A DNA stretch of 64,000 nt from Escherichia coli (GTDB taxonomy: Bacteria; Pseudomonadota; Gammaproteobacteria; Enterobacterales; Enterobacteriaceae): assembly GCF_030013205.1 (NCBI RefSeq), contig NZ_CP122648.1. One strand, given 5' to 3'. The position numbers and the translations under genes were made by a program. Of this stretch, positions 4,350 to 43,226 are shown one piece after another; the first letter of the stretch is position 1, and each line of letters starts with the position of its first letter. Below the pieces are notes generated by a model, which was given only the letters and a program-made list of their open reading frames with translations, was not told the DNA's origin and made no database searches.

Positions 4350-5075
4350 TTATTCCATTACGCCCGTCATTTTGGGGGTAAGTGCGCCATAATCATTTAT
4401 TGTTCGGTAAGTAATATTGCTTCCTGCATCAGAAGGCAATTTAACCGTGCTTTCGCCCATTGGAGGCACCAATGCATTTTCAAGAACCCGGGTTCCGGCA
4501 TTCAACTCTGTTACCGTCAGGTAATAGGGTGTCGGGTTAATCAGAGTCAGAGAATTCGCGCTACGACGAAATCTTAATTTTTCTGCGGCCTGATCGGGTG
4601 GCAACGCTAATTTAGCCGGGCGATAGTACAGTTTAATGCGGCTGATAATTGCGAGCTGTAGCGTATTCTCAGTCAATTTTGATTTATCCATTGACGGAAT
4701 CGCTTTAACGTTCATCCAGAATAAACTTTCCCGATCCTGTGGCAATTGGTTATTTGTTGCATCAAGAATACGTAAGGTATTCTCTTTTTTTCCCTTCATC
4801 GCAAACAGAGGTGGCGTCACGATAAAACGACCATCCTTTACACCATCGGCATTTTCCACCCATGATTGAATTAAATAGGTGCTATTTTCATCATTATTTG
4901 TCACGGCAAGTTGCACTTGTTTTTGCCCTGCCGGATAAATTACGCGAGTCGCACCTAAGGCCACTCCCGCTTCGGCGCGTCCGGCAACCATCATTGCCAT
5001 GAACATCAGGATACCTGCCAGCAAGCAGAATGTTATTTCCTGCGATTTCCTTACATTGACGTTTTTATTACTCAC
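4350..5075 (-). CDS. fimC: FimC periplasmic fimbrial chaperone (241 aa)
   Basis: ORF MSNKNVNVRKSQEITFCLLAGILMFMAMMVAGRAEAGVALGATRVIYPAGQKQVQLAVTNN...; PapD-like chaperone. Confidence 0.95.
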   Translation of the reverse strand: MSNKNVNVRKSQEITFCLLAGILMFMAMMVAGRAEAGVALGATRVIYPAGQKQVQLAVTNNDENSTYLIQSWVENADGVKDGRFIVTPPLFAMKGKKENTLRILDATNNQLPQDRESLFWMNVKAIPSMDKSKLTENTLQLAIISRIKLYYRPAKLALPPDQAAEKLRFRRSANSLTLINPTPYYLTVTELNAGTRVLENALVPPMGESTVKLPSDAGSNITYRTINDYGALTPKMTGVME

Positions 5076-5111
5076 TGTCCTGTTCCTGTTATCACATTAT
5101 CTGCTGAACAA

Positions 5112-34744: not shown

Positions 34745-35590
34745 TTATTCATTTAAAGATTCAAGAAATGTCCAGCCTTTATGAGTAACATAATACATTT
34801 GTCCTTTTGCCCCTCTTTCAATCACAAAATCAAAGGATAACAGTTCGTTAAGTGCGCCCTCCCAACGGGCTACCTCTCTAGCCGAACTTCCACCAAAGGA
34901 TTGATTTCCCGCTTGAATATCCGTGCCACCTAAATGCCTTATCACATAAATTGTTCCGCTATCATCGACACATGCTAATTTCAGCAAACTGAGTGCATCG
35001 GCGGACAAATTACTTTCTGGCAAAGATTGACTTGTATTCGCATCAGGAGAATTGTTAATGGTAGATATAAGAGAAGACAAATAAGGGCTACTAGAAATAA
35101 TTATCGAAAGTTGCCTACGGACTTTTTCTTTGAAATCAGATAAGTCATTAAAAGACTCTATCAATCCCTTTTGCATGCACTCAGTTTTGAACAATTTAAG
35201 AGACTCATATTGTTCTCTATCAAGGCTTTCAGGGGCAACAGGCTTTGAGGAAAAGTAAATCATTGCCGGTTTTCCCGCATTCAAATGACGGTGGATTTCT
35301 TCGACTGTTCCGCTGGCCTCGTTCCCAGTCGGTGAGCCTAGACGAGTCCAAAACACACCGATTAATAAATCACAATCTACTAATAATCTTTGATTAATCA
35401 ACTCCTGAGGCCTAACTCCTAATTCGGGTGATGTATGAGTTTCCCATCCAATTGGTGTCAACATTACTTTTGAACGAGCTGAATTTATATCATTCCACTC
35501 ATGGATCATTTCACGAATGACTTGTCTCTCTTCAGCGACATCACCAGGAGAAGCAATCATTACAGGGATAACAGTTGCTGTGTAAGCCAT
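34745..35590 (-). CDS. Two-domain hypothetical protein (281 aa) with DUF4062-like N-terminal domain
   Basis: N-terminus VIPVMIASPGDVAEERQVIREMI...VDCDLLIGVFWTRLGSPTGNEASGTVEEIHRHLNAGKPAMIYFSS matches the DUF4062 pattern (S..D..EER ... CD..I.....R.G ... SGT..E ... GKP); C-terminal ~120 aa unassigned; start 13 nt after recombinase stop. Confidence 0.65.
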   Translation of the reverse strand: MAYTATVIPVMIASPGDVAEERQVIREMIHEWNDINSARSKVMLTPIGWETHTSPELGVRPQELINQRLLVDCDLLIGVFWTRLGSPTGNEASGTVEEIHRHLNAGKPAMIYFSSKPVAPESLDREQYESLKLFKTECMQKGLIESFNDLSDFKEKVRRQLSIIISSSPYLSSLISTINNSPDANTSQSLPESNLSADALSLLKLACVDDSGTIYVIRHLGGTDIQAGNQSFGGSSAREVARWEGALNELLSFDFVIERGAKGQMYYVTHKGWTFLESLNE

Positions 35591-35603
35591 AAACTCTCCA
35601 TAT

Positions 35604-36164
35604 TCAATCGGTAATAGCTGCTACAGTCGCTCTTGAAACGCCATATTGACGCGCTAACGCACTGATACTCAAACCGCTATTCTTTTTCTCTAAAATCTCT
35701 CTACGGGCTTCTGACGCGATTTTAGGAGGTCTGCCCAATTTCTTACCTTCGGCTTTTGCTCGTGATAGTCCCGCCTGAGTGCGCTCAATCAGCAGATCAC
35801 GCTCCATCTCCGCAACCGCGGCGAGCATAGATAATAGCAACTTCCCAGCGGCAGAAGTGAGATCTGTGTTACCAAGCTGGTGGACAAGAACCTTGATATT
35901 ACGGTCAGCCAGCGCCCTTACCGTTTGCAAGACGTCAATCGCATCACGCCCCAGACGATCAAGCTTCGCTACCACCAACGTTTCACCATCGCGGATTTTA
36001 TTGAGCATTTCAGAAAATGCTTTACGTTGCATTGCCGGAACCTTCCCGCTAACAACATCGGCAAACCAGTAATCAATTTGCCACCCAGCCTGCCCAAGCT
36101 CCAGCCGTTGGTTCTCAGTATCCTGCTGCGATGTCGAAACACGTCCGTAGCCAAAAGTTGCCAT
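35604..36164 (-). CDS. Small serine recombinase, resolvase/invertase family (186 aa)
   Basis: ATG at 36164 with SD GGAG; MATFGYGRVSTSQQDTENQ... (catalytic Ser region), ...VAKLDRLGRD..., C-terminal HTH LSISALARQYGVSRATV. Confidence 0.85.
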   Translation of the reverse strand: MATFGYGRVSTSQQDTENQRLELGQAGWQIDYWFADVVSGKVPAMQRKAFSEMLNKIRDGETLVVAKLDRLGRDAIDVLQTVRALADRNIKVLVHQLGNTDLTSAAGKLLLSMLAAVAEMERDLLIERTQAGLSRAKAEGKKLGRPPKIASEARREILEKKNSGLSISALARQYGVSRATVAAITD

Positions 36165-36186
36165 TGTTATCTCCCCATCTGACCCC

Positions 36187-36284
36187 TGCCAGAAAACGAG
36201 GCCAACATTAGGATGGCCTGCCAGAAAAGCCAAGGCTATTTTTCCAACAGTGTGAAAGCGTGCGATTGGGAGGTGCCAGAAAAC
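36187..36284. repeat. Three direct copies of TGCCAGAAAA(C/G) upstream of the recombinase gene (candidate res-like site / iterons)
   Basis: Copies at 36187-36197, 36219-36229 and 36274-36284, 23-120 bp upstream of the recombinase start. Confidence 0.5.
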
Positions 36285-36356
36285 GGTCGTTTGTTGGCGC
36301 TTAAAACGGATAAAGACATGTTAGGCTGAAACCATCACTTCATAAGGACAACCGAA

Positions 36357-36823
36357 ATGATTAAAGACGCGATTTTTCACCGTGCGGTCAATATCGCTAC
36401 TCGTTATCACGAGTCTGGGACGAATCAAAACCATATGCCCTTTTCATAGGGCTAAACCCTTCATACGCCGATGCTGAGAAGGATGATCGCACCTTGAGCC
36501 GCTGCATATCGTTTGCCAAAAGCAGGGGCTACGGTGGCGTATACATGGCCAACCTGTTCGCATTCGTTCACACCCAGCGACATGAAATGATGAAAGCGTC
36601 TGATCCCATTGGCAAAGATAACGATAGCCACTTGATACGTCTTGTTAGCGGTGCCGGACTGGTTGTCGCCGCATGGGGAAATGAAGGAAGACACCTCAAA
36701 CGCTCAACGACCGTCCGACAGCTATTGCCAGAGAGCACAATGTGCTTCGTCTTAAACGCTACAGGTGAGCCGAAGCACCCTTTGTATATGAAAAACGACA
36801 GTGTTCTCATACCTTTAGGTTAA
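36357..36823 (+). pseudogene. DUF1643-family gene disrupted by a +1 frameshift in a T5 run
   Basis: ATG at 36357 reads MIKDAIFHRAVN... to a stop after 30 codons; the -1 frame continues ...SPCGQYRYSLSRVWDESKPYALFIGLNPSYADAEKDDRTLSRCISFAKSRGYGGVYMANLFAF... (DUF1643 hallmark); frames join if one T of 36373-36377 is removed. Confidence 0.65.
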
Positions 36824-36832
36824 CATCGATAA

Positions 36833-36855
36833 CTGCGTTCAGAATATGAACGCAG
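36833..36855. terminator. Perfect 9-bp-stem palindrome CTGCGTTCA-GAATA-TGAACGCAG after the DUF1643 gene (terminator or operator)
   Basis: Inverted repeat directly downstream of the stop at 36823. Confidence 0.4.
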
Positions 36856-37828
36856 CCATATGATATATATGACTTTTCTTTAAAATGATGGTGTGCTAGC
36901 TTCTCTCCTGACACCTACCTCATGCGGTAAACCGGTCCGGGTAGGTGGAGATCACCGCTGTTTAGCGGAAGACGTCAGGATGGGAACTCTGCGTAACGTT
37001 GATTGTGGTAGGTAGGGCGCGCAAGCGTTTGATGCAGCCAAGCAGAGGGTGAAAGTAGCTATCGGCGGATTCTTGAGTAGCTTCTTTTGCGCATAATGCA
37101 TCTTTCAAGAAAGGTCGTCACACCACGAGGAAGACTTGATCTTCATCTGGCAAGGGGAACCGAGCAACCTACAGGCTATCTTCTCAGATGGCCTTATGGT
37201 TGATATGTCCGGCTTCCCCCCCGAGGAAGGGTTTACATCTTAAAGAACAAGTTATGTTTTAACATTTTTAACAATTACACTTCTCTGCTGTTTGGTGTCT
37301 TATGGCGTTGCCGTCAAAAGTAAACCTGCCGTTTTTACCTCTCCTGCGTAACAACCAAATACGAACCAGAAGCTGCTAACGTTCAACGTGTTCGCGGTGT
37401 AAATGCAGCCAGATAAGTTGGGAGCGAAAAAGTGGATGCCCTAGGTTTGGAAGCGCCCCTCTCAGGCATAGCGTCCGAAAATTTCCACGGCGGCAGGCTT
37501 ATCCTTATAGAGCCAAACAGACTCAAAAGTTAAGAAGCGCGGTAAAGCTTAAAGCTCGCCCAGATTTCTCATTGATTGCTCGAACTCCGCTACGCTTGTT
37601 TCAACTGGCTTCGCCAGTCACTCTATGAGAGCGCCGCGAATTCTGCACCATGATTTCGACTACCTTCTTTAAAACACTCGCCAGAGAGCCTTACAGCGCG
37701 TTTGAACCGCATATCGCAGCTTTTGCTTACGGATGACTGTCTGATTAGCAGTAGCTTCATGGCCCAGTCCGGTTTACTTTATTGCTATCAACAAGGGAGC
37801 CGTCCAGAGGCGACGCGGAGATAATGCT

Positions 37829-38161
37829 TTGAGAACCGTCGAGATACTGCAATACACCTTACGCAAAGGCAGCGGTGCCGCTTTTCACGCCATTATGCAG
37901 GAAATCAGTGTTCCCCTACACCAACGCCACGGGATCGATGTTGTTTCGTTTGGTAACTCTCTGCATGACCCGGACTGCTATTACCTGATTCGCGCCTTTG
38001 TCAGCCCTAAAAGCATGACTACGGTTCTCGACGCTTTTTACGCAAGCGATGACTGGCGCAGCGGCCCGCGCGAAGACATCATTGGCAACATAGAGGCCAG
38101 CATTAAAACAGTGATAAATCTACCATCAGAAAGCGTAGAAGGGCTGCGGGTGCAATCGTAG
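37829..38161 (+). CDS. NIPSNAP/Dabb-like small protein (110 aa, TTG start inferred)
   Basis: ...VEILQYTLRKGSGAAFHAIMQEISVPLHQRHGIDVVSFGNSLHDPDCYYLIRAFVS... resembles NIPSNAP-type ~100-aa proteins; no in-frame ATG upstream. Confidence 0.45.
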   Translation: MRTVEILQYTLRKGSGAAFHAIMQEISVPLHQRHGIDVVSFGNSLHDPDCYYLIRAFVSPKSMTTVLDAFYASDDWRSGPREDIIGNIEASIKTVINLPSESVEGLRVQS

Positions 38162-38293
38162 GTCATCAAGTTTCACCAAACGTGTTTTGAGCGTCTCCAA
38201 ATTCAGCACTATGAAATCCACCACCCTTAATAAAAAACGCGCCAGGAAGCGTCCCAGCGCATTCAAGCATCACTCAACTGAATAGTAACTGAT

Positions 38294-40204
38294 TCAACCT
38301 GTTTGTTTGCCACGCTTTCTTCGCAACGCATCTCTGACAGCATCCAGCCCGTCAGGAATGTTGAATTCCGCTATATCAGGTAACGAAAAATCAATTTTCT
38401 CCACGACTTCAATCATATGAATTGGTTTGAGGTCTTTGCTATATCGCACTTCCGTTTCAGTTTCGCCGCGCACATGCCCAAGTAGCTGCGCTCGTAATTC
38501 TGAGCTAACGCCCTTCTCCTTGAGCAAAGTCGAAACTGAGTGGCGAAAAGAATGGAAAGATTTGCTTCTGTTCCTCTCGAGTTTCAACCGCCCCGCAAGC
38601 AACGATTCATTGAACCATGCGGAAACTGGCCTACCATAGCCTTTTGTTTTATGTGGTTTAAGCTCCGGGAAGAGACGGGTATACCCTGCATCTTTTAAGG
38701 CGTTCACGTAGTCGATGAAACCGAGACTAATCAGCTTTGAATGGAGCGGAATCTTGCGGCGAGCATTAGCATTTTTGAGTTTCTTTCCGCTTTCATTATC
38801 GCTTTCAAGGTTCAAATAATAGACGCCGTCGTCTGCCAGAACATCACTCAGCAGTAACTGAGCGATTTCATTAACTCGCGCCCCCGTCATCAAGCCCAGC
38901 AAAGGTGCCCAATAGTTAAACGGGCAATATTGATGGAATCGCCCTTGCGCATTGCGTTCAACAGTTCCAGCCTCAAACCACGGTAACGAAAAAATCGCTT
39001 TAATTTCATGCGGTTCAAATATGTCAGTGTGATCCTGATCTCGCTCATCTTTATCATCGGATGGAAAAAAGTTTTCGCATGGCGATTTCAGTAGCTTACC
39101 GTCAGCAACAGCCCACTTCATTGCACCATAAATGCCGTTGATATACTTCCTAACGGATTCCTCAGTCATCAATTTATCGCCGCATTCTGCCGCTTTGGCG
39201 ATTAACTGATCCAGCGTTTTCACTCCATATTTAGCTTTGACTAAATTACGGTTTGCTGGGATCGTGCGCAGTTTGCTCTCATAAGCCCGGAGGAAATCGC
39301 GATCAAAATCTTCCAACTGAATGTCACCCATCGCTTCGATCATAAAGCTGAAATAGTTACGGATATCACTTATAGCCGACTCCGATACCTTGCCCTTGCG
39401 CCGATGCTTTAGATATTCAGAGCATAACCACGACAGATTCTTAGTGTAATACTTTCGATTAACATACTCGTTATCGATAGTAGGGGCAGGAGCGGCAAGA
39501 GGCACGGTAGGATGAACACTAGCGACTGGAGGCGTGGTCTTAGCCAGCCAATCAAGCCTTAGGCTTTCTGCATGGACTTTATTGATCAAAAGCGTATCGG
39601 GTTTAATTACCGGCCAACCGGAGGTGAAAAACCAACCGCCTTTAGCGTCGCTTCCGGCAGTTTTGAACACCGAAGCTTCTGAATAACCGTCGCTAATAAT
39701 GTTACGTAAATGTGCTGGTTGCGCAGTGAGTTGCAGATAGCCTTTAGCAACCCCCTCGATACCCTTCTCTTCGCCATAATTAAGAACGTAACTGCCATCA
39801 AGCGGGTCTAGCTCAGCCTCAGAGAGCGCTGCAACATAAAAGCCAGCCTGCCCCGTCGCCAGCCAGAATACGGGCAGATTACGGTTCATCACCGCCTGTA
39901 TTAATTGCGCAACAGGCAACTCAACTGACTGAGCAAAGTTAGAAAGCGAGATCATACCCTCACCAGCAAGCAGCGGGGCGCAGTCACTTAAAGTTCGATA
40001 ATCCAATTGTTCATACTCTTGTAAGGTCTGATACCAGACCGCCAACAGGAGCGCGGACTTCTGCTTTGCTTCATGAAGATCGTGAGTGCCTGTTGAAGTG
40101 TGAATCTCACACTGTCCTGCGTATCGACGAAAACGTTGGGGAATGCTAATGCGGACAACATAAATGCCGCTGGTTCGACGATAGAGTTTATATCGCTGAG
40201 ACAT
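38294..40204 (-). CDS. Large tyrosine recombinase / integrase (636 aa from first ATG; 650 aa from TTG at 40246)
   Basis: C-terminal catalytic region ...GARVNEIAQLLLSDV...HSFRHSVSTLL...LLGH...EVRYSKD (R, H-x-x-R, H, Y); start adjacent to the 3' end of tRNA-Leu, same orientation. Confidence 0.85.
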   Translation of the reverse strand: MSQRYKLYRRTSGIYVVRISIPQRFRRYAGQCEIHTSTGTHDLHEAKQKSALLLAVWYQTLQEYEQLDYRTLSDCAPLLAGEGMISLSNFAQSVELPVAQLIQAVMNRNLPVFWLATGQAGFYVAALSEAELDPLDGSYVLNYGEEKGIEGVAKGYLQLTAQPAHLRNIISDGYSEASVFKTAGSDAKGGWFFTSGWPVIKPDTLLINKVHAESLRLDWLAKTTPPVASVHPTVPLAAPAPTIDNEYVNRKYYTKNLSWLCSEYLKHRRKGKVSESAISDIRNYFSFMIEAMGDIQLEDFDRDFLRAYESKLRTIPANRNLVKAKYGVKTLDQLIAKAAECGDKLMTEESVRKYINGIYGAMKWAVADGKLLKSPCENFFPSDDKDERDQDHTDIFEPHEIKAIFSLPWFEAGTVERNAQGRFHQYCPFNYWAPLLGLMTGARVNEIAQLLLSDVLADDGVYYLNLESDNESGKKLKNANARRKIPLHSKLISLGFIDYVNALKDAGYTRLFPELKPHKTKGYGRPVSAWFNESLLAGRLKLERNRSKSFHSFRHSVSTLLKEKGVSSELRAQLLGHVRGETETEVRYSKDLKPIHMIEVVEKIDFSLPDIAEFNIPDGLDAVRDALRRKRGKQTG

Positions 40205-40294
40205 CGCCTCGTATACCCTTTTGTAAGAGGGGCTACGCGATTTCAAGCAAAATTATGGATTAAATTGTTTTAAAACAACGACTTAGATAAGACT

Positions 40295-40379
40295 TGGTGC
40301 CGAAGGCCGGACTCGAACCGGCACGTATTTCTACGGTTGATTTTGAATCAACTGCGTCTACCGATTTCGCCACTTCGGC
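40295..40379 (-). tRNA. leuX: tRNA-Leu (CAA anticodon), leuX
   Basis: Reverse complement reads GCCGAAGTGGCGAAATCGGTAGACGCAGTTGATTCAAAATCAACCGTAGAAATACGTGCCGGTTCGAGTCCGGCCTTCGGCACCA with long variable arm and CCA end. Confidence 0.95.
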
Positions 40380-40574
40380 ACTGAAGAGGTATGCGGAAAA
40401 CGTTGTGGATTATACCTGTCGCACGCCACCATGCAAGCGCCAGCTTGCACCCACCTCGCTAAGTGCTGAAATTTTCAGCATTACACTCAGCGATATGTAA
40501 CCTTTGTCACACTCCAGGCACCCCGCCCTGCCATGCTCTACACTTCCCAAACAACACCAGAGAAGGACCCAAAA

Positions 40575-41594
40575 ATGTCGATGATAAAAAGCTATGCCGC
40601 AAAAGAAGCGGGCGGCGAACTGGAAGTTTATGAGTACGATCCCGGTGAGCTGAAGCCACAAGATGTTGAAGTGCAGGTGGATTACTGCGGGATTTGTCAT
40701 TCCGATCTGTCGATGATCGATAACGAATGGGGATTTTCACAATATCCGCTGGTTGCCGGGCATGAGGTGATTGGGCGCGTGGTGGCACTCGGGAGCGCCG
40801 CGCAGGATAAAGGTTTGCAGGTCGGTCAGCGTGTCGGGATTGGCTGGACGGCGCGTAGCTGTGGTCACTGCGACACCTGTATTAGCGGTAATCAGATCAA
40901 CTGCGAGCAAGGTGCGGTGCCGACGATTATGAATCGCGGTGGCTTTGCCGAGAAGTTGCGTGCGGACTGGCAATGGGTGATTCCACTGCCAGAAAATATT
41001 GATATCGAGTCCGCCGGGCCGCTGTTGTGCGGCGGTATCACGGTCTTTAAACCACTGTTGATGCACCATATCACTGCTACCAGCCGCGTTGGGGTAATTG
41101 GTATTGGCGGGCTGGGGCATATCGCTATAAAACTTCTGCACGCAATGGGATGCGAGGTGACGGCCTTTAGTTCTAATCCGGCGAAAGAGCAGGAAGTACT
41201 GGCGATGGGTACCGATAAAGTGGTGAATAGCCGCGATCCGCAGGCACTGAAAGCCCTGTCGGGGCAGTTTGATCTCATTATCAATACTGTGAACGTCAGC
41301 CTCGACTGGCAGCCTTATTTTGAGGCGCTGACCTATGGCGGTAATTTCCATACGGTCGGTGCGGTTCTCACGCCGCTGTCTGTTCCGGCCTTTACGTTAA
41401 TTGCGGGCGACCGCAGCATCTCTGGTTCTGCTACCGGCACGCCTTATGAGCTGCGTAAGCTGATGCGTTTTGCCGCCCGCAGCAAGGTTGCGCCGACCAC
41501 CGAACTGTTCCCGATGTCGAAAATTAACGACGCCATCCAGCATGTACGCGATGGTAAAGCGCGCTACCGCGTGGTCCTGAAAGCCGACTTCTGA
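40575..41594 (+). CDS. ahr: Ahr (YjgB) NADPH-dependent aldehyde reductase, Zn-dependent alcohol dehydrogenase family (339 aa)
   Basis: ATG at 40575: [53 protein letters not shown]...; GHEVIG and GIGGLGH motifs. Confidence 0.93.
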
Positions 41595-41723
41595 TCCCTT
41601 TGCCGGGAGCCTGTCGCCCGGCACTTAAATCTCTTTGGAAGGCGTCTCGCAATCTGCTGAATTTAGCGGTGAAGAGTGCACAGCCGTTGCCTATACTCCA
41701 GGCAGGAAACTGGAGGAAATCTC

Positions 41724-43226
41724 ATGAGCGAACCCCTGTTAATTGCCCGCACGCCGGACACAGAACTGTTTTTACTGCCGGGAATGGCTAACCGTCACGG
41801 GCTGATTACTGGCGCAACGGGGACGGGTAAAACTGTCACGCTGCAAAAACTGGCGGAGTCTCTATCGGAAATCGGCGTGCCGGTGTTTATGGCCGATGTG
41901 AAAGGCGATCTGACCGGTATCGCGCAGGCAGGAACGGCGTCGGAAAAACTGCTCGCAAGGCTTAAAAATATCGGCGTAAATGACTGGCAACCGCATGCTA
42001 ATCCGGTGGTGGTGTGGGATATCTTTGGCGAGAAAGGCCATCCGGTGCGGGCGACGGTTTCGGATCTGGGGCCGCTGTTGCTGGCGCGGCTGTTGAATCT
42101 CAACGATGTGCAATCTGGCGTGCTGAATATCATCTTCCGAATTGCTGACGATCAGGGGCTGTTACTGCTCGACTTTAAAGATCTGCGGGCGATTACCCAG
42201 TACATCGGCGATAACGCCAAATCTTTCCAGAATCAGTACGGAAATATCAGTAGCGCATCGGTTGGTGCCATCCAGCGCGGGCTGTTGTCGCTGGAACAGC
42301 AAGGCGCAGCACACTTCTTTGGTGAGCCGATGCTGGATATCAAAGACTTGATGCGCACCGATGCCAACGGTAAAGGCGTTATTAATATCCTCAGCGCCGA
42401 GAAGCTTTATCAGATGCCGAAACTGTACGCCGCCAGCCTGCTGTGGATGATTTCAGAGTTGTATGAACAATTGCCGGAAGCGGGCGATCTGGAGAAGCCA
42501 AAACTGGTGTTTTTCTTCGACGAAGCACATCTGCTGTTTAACGATGCACCGCAGGTACTGCTGGATAAGATTGAGCAGGTGATAAGGCTTATTCGCTCAA
42601 AAGGCGTGGGCGTCTGGTTCGTTTCGCAAAACCCGTCTGATATTCCGGATAATGTGCTCGGCCAGCTCGGTAATCGCGTTCAGCACGCTTTGCGGGCTTT
42701 TACGCCAAAAGATCAGAAAGCGGTAAAAGCTGCGGCGCAAACCATGCGGGCCAATCCGGCGTTTGATACCGAAAAGGCAATCCAGGAACTGGGGACCGGC
42801 GAGGCGTTAATCTCGTTTCTCGATGCAAAAGGAAGTCCTTCTGTGGTGGAACGGGCGATGGTGATTGCGCCTTGTTCGCGGATGGGACCGGTGACGGAAG
42901 ATGAGCGCAATGGCTTGATTAACCACTCCCCGGTGTATGGCAAGTACGAGGATGACGTGGACCGGGAATCCGCCTATGAGATGTTGCAAAAAGGCGTACA
43001 GGCGAGTATTGAACAGCAAAATAATCCTCCAGCGAAAGGGAAAGAGATAGCGGTAGATGACGGCATTCTTGGTGGATTGAAGGATATTTTGTTCGGCACT
43101 ACCGGACCACGCGGCGGGAAGAAAGATGGTGTGGTGCAGACAATGGCCAAAAGCGCCGCTCGCCAGGTGACGAATCAGATTGTACGCGGGATGTTGGGGA
43201 GTTTGCTGGGAGGGAGAAGAAGGTAA
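41724..43226 (+). CDS. yjgR: YjgR, DUF853 P-loop NTPase (500 aa)
   Basis: ATG at 41724: [43 protein letters not shown]... Confidence 0.9.

Follow-up and report, generated by a model that had tools for sequence, protein, structure and literature searches.

A one-base deletion in a T run and the probable inactivation of a DUF1643 gene in the leuX island of Escherichia coli

How did a conserved gene of the DUF1643 family come to be divided between two reading frames, and can what is left of it still give rise to a protein? In the window, by which we mean the whole 64,000-nucleotide stretch of Escherichia coli DNA analyzed here, this gene occupies 467 nt on the plus strand (36357..36823), the coordinates that PGAP also annotates in K_EC180 and Nissle 1917, and its intact allele has 468 nt and encodes 155 amino acids. 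A first-pass annotation had attributed the division to a single-base insertion in a T5 homopolymer, leaving pseudogenization, a homopolymer sequencing error, and a slippage-prone switch as options. Our data support the first of these options, with the direction of the mutation reversed. We consider it very probable that a DUF1643 accessory gene of the leuX island (SpLE5 in O157:H7 Sakai) lost its function when a T6 run was shortened by one T and that the resulting T5 form is a lineage-fixed pseudogene.

Read directly, the homopolymer at 36373..36377 (plus strand) has exactly five T, flanked by A36372 and C36378. The frame translated from the ATG at 36357 (36357..36449, plus strand) is MIKDAIFHRAVNIATRYHESGTNQNHMPFS. 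It comprises 7 authentic residues (MIKDAIF) and 23 out-of-frame residues before the TAG at 36447-36449, and the earlier statement that this frame ends after 30 codons was correct. Equally correct was the placement of the remainder of the protein in the -1 frame, where the DUF1643 body, residues 8-155 of the intact protein (36377..36823, plus strand), reads SPCGQYRYSLSRVWDE...GLNPSYADAEKDDRT... (in a longer reading, SPCGQYRYSLSRVWDESKPYALFIGLNPSYADAEKDDRT...) and is open without interruption from 36377 to the TAA at 36821-36823. On its 5' side, the -1 frame is closed by a TAA at 36362-36364, and between this codon and the TTG at 36494 it has no ATG, GTG, or TTG. That TTG, the first candidate for a start of its own, lies past residue 46; the invariant residues S8, C10, Y13, R14, R19, W21, and G32-S36 are all encoded 5' of it. 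Since translation of the -1 frame could begin at TTG 36494 at the earliest, the DUF1643 body cannot start translation on its own.

The start signals of the pseudogene are intact, with a Shine-Dalgarno-like AAGGA (36344..36348, plus strand) located 8 nt 5' of the ATG, as it is in intact alleles. Ribosomes initiating at this ATG would be expected to make a 30-residue product of which only 7 residues are authentic, leaving 148 codons, with all of the conserved motifs, out of frame and startless, and no functional protein would result.

To what change the divided frame should be ascribed was evaluated by editing the length of the T run in silico. Adding one T (T6) produced a continuous 155-codon ORF, MIKDAIFSPCGQYRY...SVLIPLG, whereas removing one T (T4) produced MIKDAIFTVRSISLL... 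with a stop after 39 codons. The claim that a continuous frame of about 155 codons can be restored thus stands, but the restoring edit is the addition of a T and not the proposed removal. Taking away two T (T3) also reopens the frame, and T6 and T3 are the only edits that restore the 155 codons; T3 is without support from any ortholog. Because the T6 edit gives a continuous frame and intact orthologs carry T6, the lesion must be the deletion of a single base (T6 to T5), and the insertion originally supposed can be set aside. This is a useful correction. The T6 run arises from codons 6-8, ATT TTT TCA (Ile6-Phe7-Ser8), and we infer that the T was most likely lost by replication slippage within the homopolymer, following the Streisinger model.

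The T6-repaired translation confirmed the assignment to DUF1643 made in the first-pass annotation. It matches PF07799 with 142.8 bits, the gathering cut-off being 22.5 bits, over positions 1-134 of the 134 in the HMM, and an E value of 8.8e-42 means that the match of the repaired protein is not a chance one. The matched domain, residues 14-143, lies entirely in the -1 frame of the window. The repaired protein also matches phrog_3230 (E = 8.2e-53). Like members of PF07799 and phrog_3230, the copy in the window resides on a mobile element beside recombinases, and its match is full length, but it is not translatable as a whole: the window holds no single uninterrupted ORF of about 155 amino acids with the N-terminal block A5/S8/C10/Y13/R14. 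When invariant columns were defined from an alignment of 31 homologs, down to 51% identity, 32 of the 33 proved to be kept in the conceptual translation of the window; the exception is W57, which is replaced by R, leaving the set of DUF1643 invariant residues incomplete. Judged from its sequence, the copy in the window appears to be a pseudogene of the DUF1643 family and not a functional member.

The 751-bp region around the lesion matches 732 of 5,426 complete E. coli genomes, and eight E. coli loci among these matches were read. K_EC180, Nissle 1917, and MS 124-1 have T5 and a 467-nt gene, which PGAP labels "DUF1643 domain-containing protein, frameshifted" in each case. All five intact loci read (O157:H7 Sakai, H7, FCI55, I4, and PapM-36-2; 96-99.9% nucleotide identity) have T6, the codons ATT TTT TCA, and an intact 468-nt CDS. 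The wider census relied on probes of 73-76 nt that span the run and differ only in its length, and all four of these run-length probes find the same 584 of the 5,426 complete E. coli genomes. Exact matches were obtained for T5 in 295 of these and for T6 in 283; T4 and T7, each sought by exact probe, had 0 matches among the 584. Of the six genomes left over, two were read: one is T6 with an extra C upstream of the run, the other is T5 with a 6-bp deletion upstream, and both of these indels are non-coding. Among the matches listed, T5 is found in all Nissle 1917 assemblies (at least six: CP022686, CP007799, CP058217, CP171242, CM187577, and CM189242) and in all ATCC 25922-type assemblies (ATCC 25922, 25DN, 25POL, ZLWT, JCM 5491, Seattle 1946, and NE88), and T6 is found in all O157:H7 assemblies, including Sakai, EDL933, and EC4115. 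With T5 in 295 of 584 locus-carrying genomes and the PGAP label "frameshifted," the option of pseudogenization is borne out, and the same interrupted frame recurs widely among orthologs, as a fixed pseudogene would. The T5 lesion is ordinary and already known, being flagged as frameshifted in RefSeq annotations of E. coli, including that of Nissle 1917.

The two run lengths sit on different sequence backgrounds. T5 alleles form a near-identical group, with 99.9% identity or more to the window, and T6 alleles mostly belong to haplotypes of 96-98% identity. Since T6 is present on every diverged haplotype that was read, with about 92-98% identity in the gene and its surroundings, and T5 is confined to the near-identical set, T6 is the ancestral state. 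The closest intact copies, ECs_5248 (NP_313275.1; SpLE5, Sakai) and WP_000588537.1, the latter encoded by the intact gene in strains H7 and FCI55, represent the same gene in the same position of the leuX island (integrase, NIPSNAP, DUF1643, resolvase). The Sakai copy differs from the repaired window gene by 6 bases and the WP_000588537.1 CDS by 1 base. Both have T6 and encode an intact 155-amino-acid protein, whereas the window has T5, W57R, and the 30-residue product. Between the Nissle T5 allele and the intact WP_000588537.1 CDS, the missing T is the only difference. We infer from these comparisons that the deletion would have arisen once, on the haplotype whose intact form, WP_000588537.1, persists, and that T5 would now be fixed and inherited in about half of the locus-carrying E. 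coli genomes. T5 versus T6 offers a simple lineage marker. The Klebsiella ortholog (85% amino-acid identity) reads ATA TTT TCA, that is, T4, and orthologs farther away are without the run; the T run itself appears to be an accident of codon choice.

FCI55 (NZ_CM172716.1; locus L004, 2158-2625) is the sole T6 genome in a 752-bp stretch that is otherwise identical to the Nissle T5 sequence, and its integrase has a protein accession unlike that of the T5 strains read. Its T6 run may be ancestral, may have arisen by reversion, or may reflect an error of assembly.

A second lesion is present in the window, where A replaces T at 36524 (36524..36524, plus strand), changing TGG to AGG (W57R). Of the alleles read, only those of the window and K_EC180 have this change; every other one, including the Nissle T5 allele, has T at this position, and W57 is invariant in the 31 homologs aligned. 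The Nissle 1917 (CIW80_RS16540) and K_EC180 (IGX36_RS21240) copies are both PGAP pseudogenes with a T5 lesion identical to that of the window, at the same coordinates. Over the 751 bp, K_EC180 matches the window at every position (100%), AGG at codon 57 included, whereas the Nissle 1917 T5 copy keeps TGG (Trp57). Because Nissle T5 retains this Trp57, the change from T6 to T5 appears to have preceded W57R, which would have followed in one sublineage. Fourteen genomes, K_EC180 among them, are 100% identical to the window over the 751 bp, and all come from swine or wild boar; given this identity, the other 13 must carry W57R too, and the substitution marks these 14 genomes. In our model, this swine and wild-boar sublineage would have gained W57R later, in a gene that was already dead. 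W57R fits decay after inactivation, as expected under relaxed selection.

DUF1643 has also decayed independently elsewhere, in a 5'-truncated chimeric Salmonella form and in another form with an aberrant C terminus. Three DUF1643 homologs of 126-129 amino acids (P0019, P0020, and P0024; Salmonella enterica/E. coli) have an unrelated N terminus of 28-31 residues joined to residues ~58-155, and for two of them the records list 153 and 82 contigs. This form appears to be an independent 5' truncation within the same gene family.

Several other explanations of the T5 run have to be weighed. By slipping spontaneously into the -1 frame on the U run, tRNA-Phe could possibly yield traces of full-length protein, and nothing suggests that this is selected for. 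The T5 form might accordingly be viewed as a hypomorph or a slow switch, through such occasional slippage or through rare reversion of T5 to T6, with FCI55 as a possible revertant. If this very unlikely reading were true, a mobile-element protein that is costly and may act on DNA would be kept at a trace level, for instance in Nissle 1917.

Also very unlikely is programmed or leaky -1 frameshifting, in which a slip of tRNA-Phe or the addition of a U by RNA polymerase would make T5 a low-expression form instead of a null. A -1 slip at Phe7 does recreate the exact intact sequence MIKDAIFSPCG..., and the start codon and the SD-like sequence are intact, but the codons at the site, GCG AUU UUU CAC, contain no in-frame slippery heptamer of the form X_XXY_YYZ. 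The A-site tRNA-His cannot re-pair, and only the P-site tRNA-Phe could; moreover, no internal SD is present 10-14 nt upstream, the AAGGA that serves as the initiation SD being 24-28 nt from the run. The 80 nt downstream of the run fold somewhat better than shuffled sequences (-20.4 kcal/mol; z = -2.4); they form only hairpins of 5-6 bp and have the same sequence in T6 alleles. Rfam gave no match. A run of U5 is too short for efficient transcriptional slippage. Nor is the site conserved across diverged orthologs, the frameshift being absent from every one of them and all of them being single-frame.

We regard as similarly improbable a contingency switch, with the run alternating reversibly between T5 (off) and T6 (on) to give phase-variable expression. 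T5 and T6 are indeed both common, FCI55, with T6 on a T5-type haplotype, could be a revertant, and the locus resembles the phase-variable genes of Haemophilus, Neisseria, and Campylobacter in that a mononucleotide run close to its 5' end bears a frameshift. Phase-variable contingency tracts are typically homopolymers of at least 7-8 nt. The tract at this locus, by contrast, has 5-6 nt, well under the lengths known to vary in phase; it has only two states, which follow lineage, and the run is not conserved in orthologs, Klebsiella and more distant ones lacking it. Also weighing against the slippage-prone switch of the first-pass annotation are the absence of T4 and T7 among the 584 genomes and the constancy of run length within the listed clones (T5 in Nissle and ATCC 25922, T6 in O157:H7). 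T5 and T6 also sit on different haplotypes, and W57R on the T5 background indicates decay, not maintenance.

That the isolate is really T6, with an intact gene hidden by a sequencing or assembly error, is hardly credible, for although some platforms err most often by homopolymer indels and further genes, fimC and IS30, are labeled "frameshifted" in the near-identical K_EC180 record, hundreds of independent assemblies carry T5 (295 complete genomes from many laboratories and platforms, with at least six independent assemblies of Nissle 1917), and the window also has the lineage-specific W57R common to 14 genomes. In the K_EC180 record (L009), the annotation of a frameshift applies to fimC and to the IS30 transposase (4356-5080 and 29485-30634), the IS30 ORF of the window (29480-30631; 383 amino acids) is intact, and the K_EC180 positions are displaced by 1-4 bases with respect to those of the window. 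These features hint at assembly indels in the K_EC180 record.

The locus is a reminder that this widespread family is without an assigned function. An AlphaFold2 model of the DUF1643 protein (pLDDT, 93.7; pTM, 0.90) predicts a small three-layer alpha/beta domain. Foldseek searches with this model gave nothing significant in the PDB and, in BFVD, only phage DUF1643 or uncharacterized proteins, and sequence and profile searches linked DUF1643 to no solved structure or other Pfam family. The alpha/beta fold of the uracil-DNA glycosylase (UDG) superfamily has its motif A loop behind the first core strand, and its motif B, which contains HP, lies close to the C terminus. We take the invariant GLNPS and HPLY segments of DUF1643 to be reminiscent of these motifs A and B, respectively. 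Pfam scans of the 31 DUF1643 members returned no UDG family at E values up to 10, and phmmer and profile searches of the PDB returned no UDG chain at E values up to 10. PADLOC had no match to DUF1643 and assigned it to no defense system. No function is given in the papers found to mention DUF1643, and searches for COG4333 and PF07799 brought up nothing relevant. The family has been described beside SAUGI within the ccr complex of SCC elements (PMC10581047); an ISL3 element carries it as cargo (PMC13231603), and in Stenotrophomonas phages it lies near a DNA ligase (PMC7326821). Overall, phages, SCC cassettes, insertion sequences, and islands all carry DUF1643, and recombinases often lie next to it. 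Very tentatively, DUF1643 may be a DNA-acting enzyme carried by mobile elements.

The surroundings of the pseudogene are those of an integrated island. The integration site is the tRNA-Leu (CAA) gene leuX (40295..40379, minus strand; annotated as leuX in Sakai), adjoined by the tyrosine integrase of the island (38294..40246, minus strand), for which PGAP uses a later start that gives a 1911-nt CDS. The island at leuX adjoins ahr and yjgR. In order away from the tRNA, it carries the tyrosine integrase, a NIPSNAP-family gene (37829-38161), the DUF1643 pseudogene, a small serine recombinase, a DUF4062 protein (34745-35590), a membrane protein, an HTH regulator, an AbiJ-NTD4 protein, and IS30. The serine recombinase (Resolvase plus HTH_7; 35604..36164, minus strand; PF00239, E = 8.8e-37) is divergent from the DUF1643 gene and is a conserved neighbor, as the resolvase-DUF1643 pair is kept in Klebsiella quasipneumoniae at 85% nucleotide identity with other cargo alongside. 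Among other DUF1643 members, the neighbors are recombinases of the large serine or the tyrosine type, or type I restriction genes.

The divergent resolvase/DUF1643 pair and the HTH regulator frame a slot whose contents vary with the host (window, 33485-36823; locus L012, 652-5471; locus L003, 2366-6616). The slot holds the DUF4062 protein and the membrane protein in the window, SIR2_2 and DUF4365 in Klebsiella, and two other hypothetical genes in O157 Sakai. The DUF4062 protein of the window has a match to the PADLOC candidate PDC-S60 (N-terminal region; E = 5.8e-27). The slot looks like a variable site for defense-type cargo. On the other side of the pseudogene, the ~1 kb between DUF1643 and NIPSNAP (36824-37828) has no ORF of at least 50 amino acids and no Rfam match at E values up to 1. 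It lies inside a 2.5-kb alignment to O157 Sakai of ~92% identity. The idea that it is a remnant of the 337-amino-acid gene that follows DUF1643 in Klebsiella was rejected, as no similarity was found.

Over positions 30200-42950, the window and Nissle 1917 (L002) show 6 differences in 10,091 island bases and none (100% identity) in 2,571 bp of the ahr-yjgR core next to it. This suggests that the two have the whole chromosomal segment in common. Farther along the window, at 46352-46546 and 47380-47551 (both on the minus strand), Rfam matches above the gathering score were obtained for Ysr276 (175 bits) and two tandem naRNA4 copies (82 and 73 bits), located in and around the pepA-holC region.
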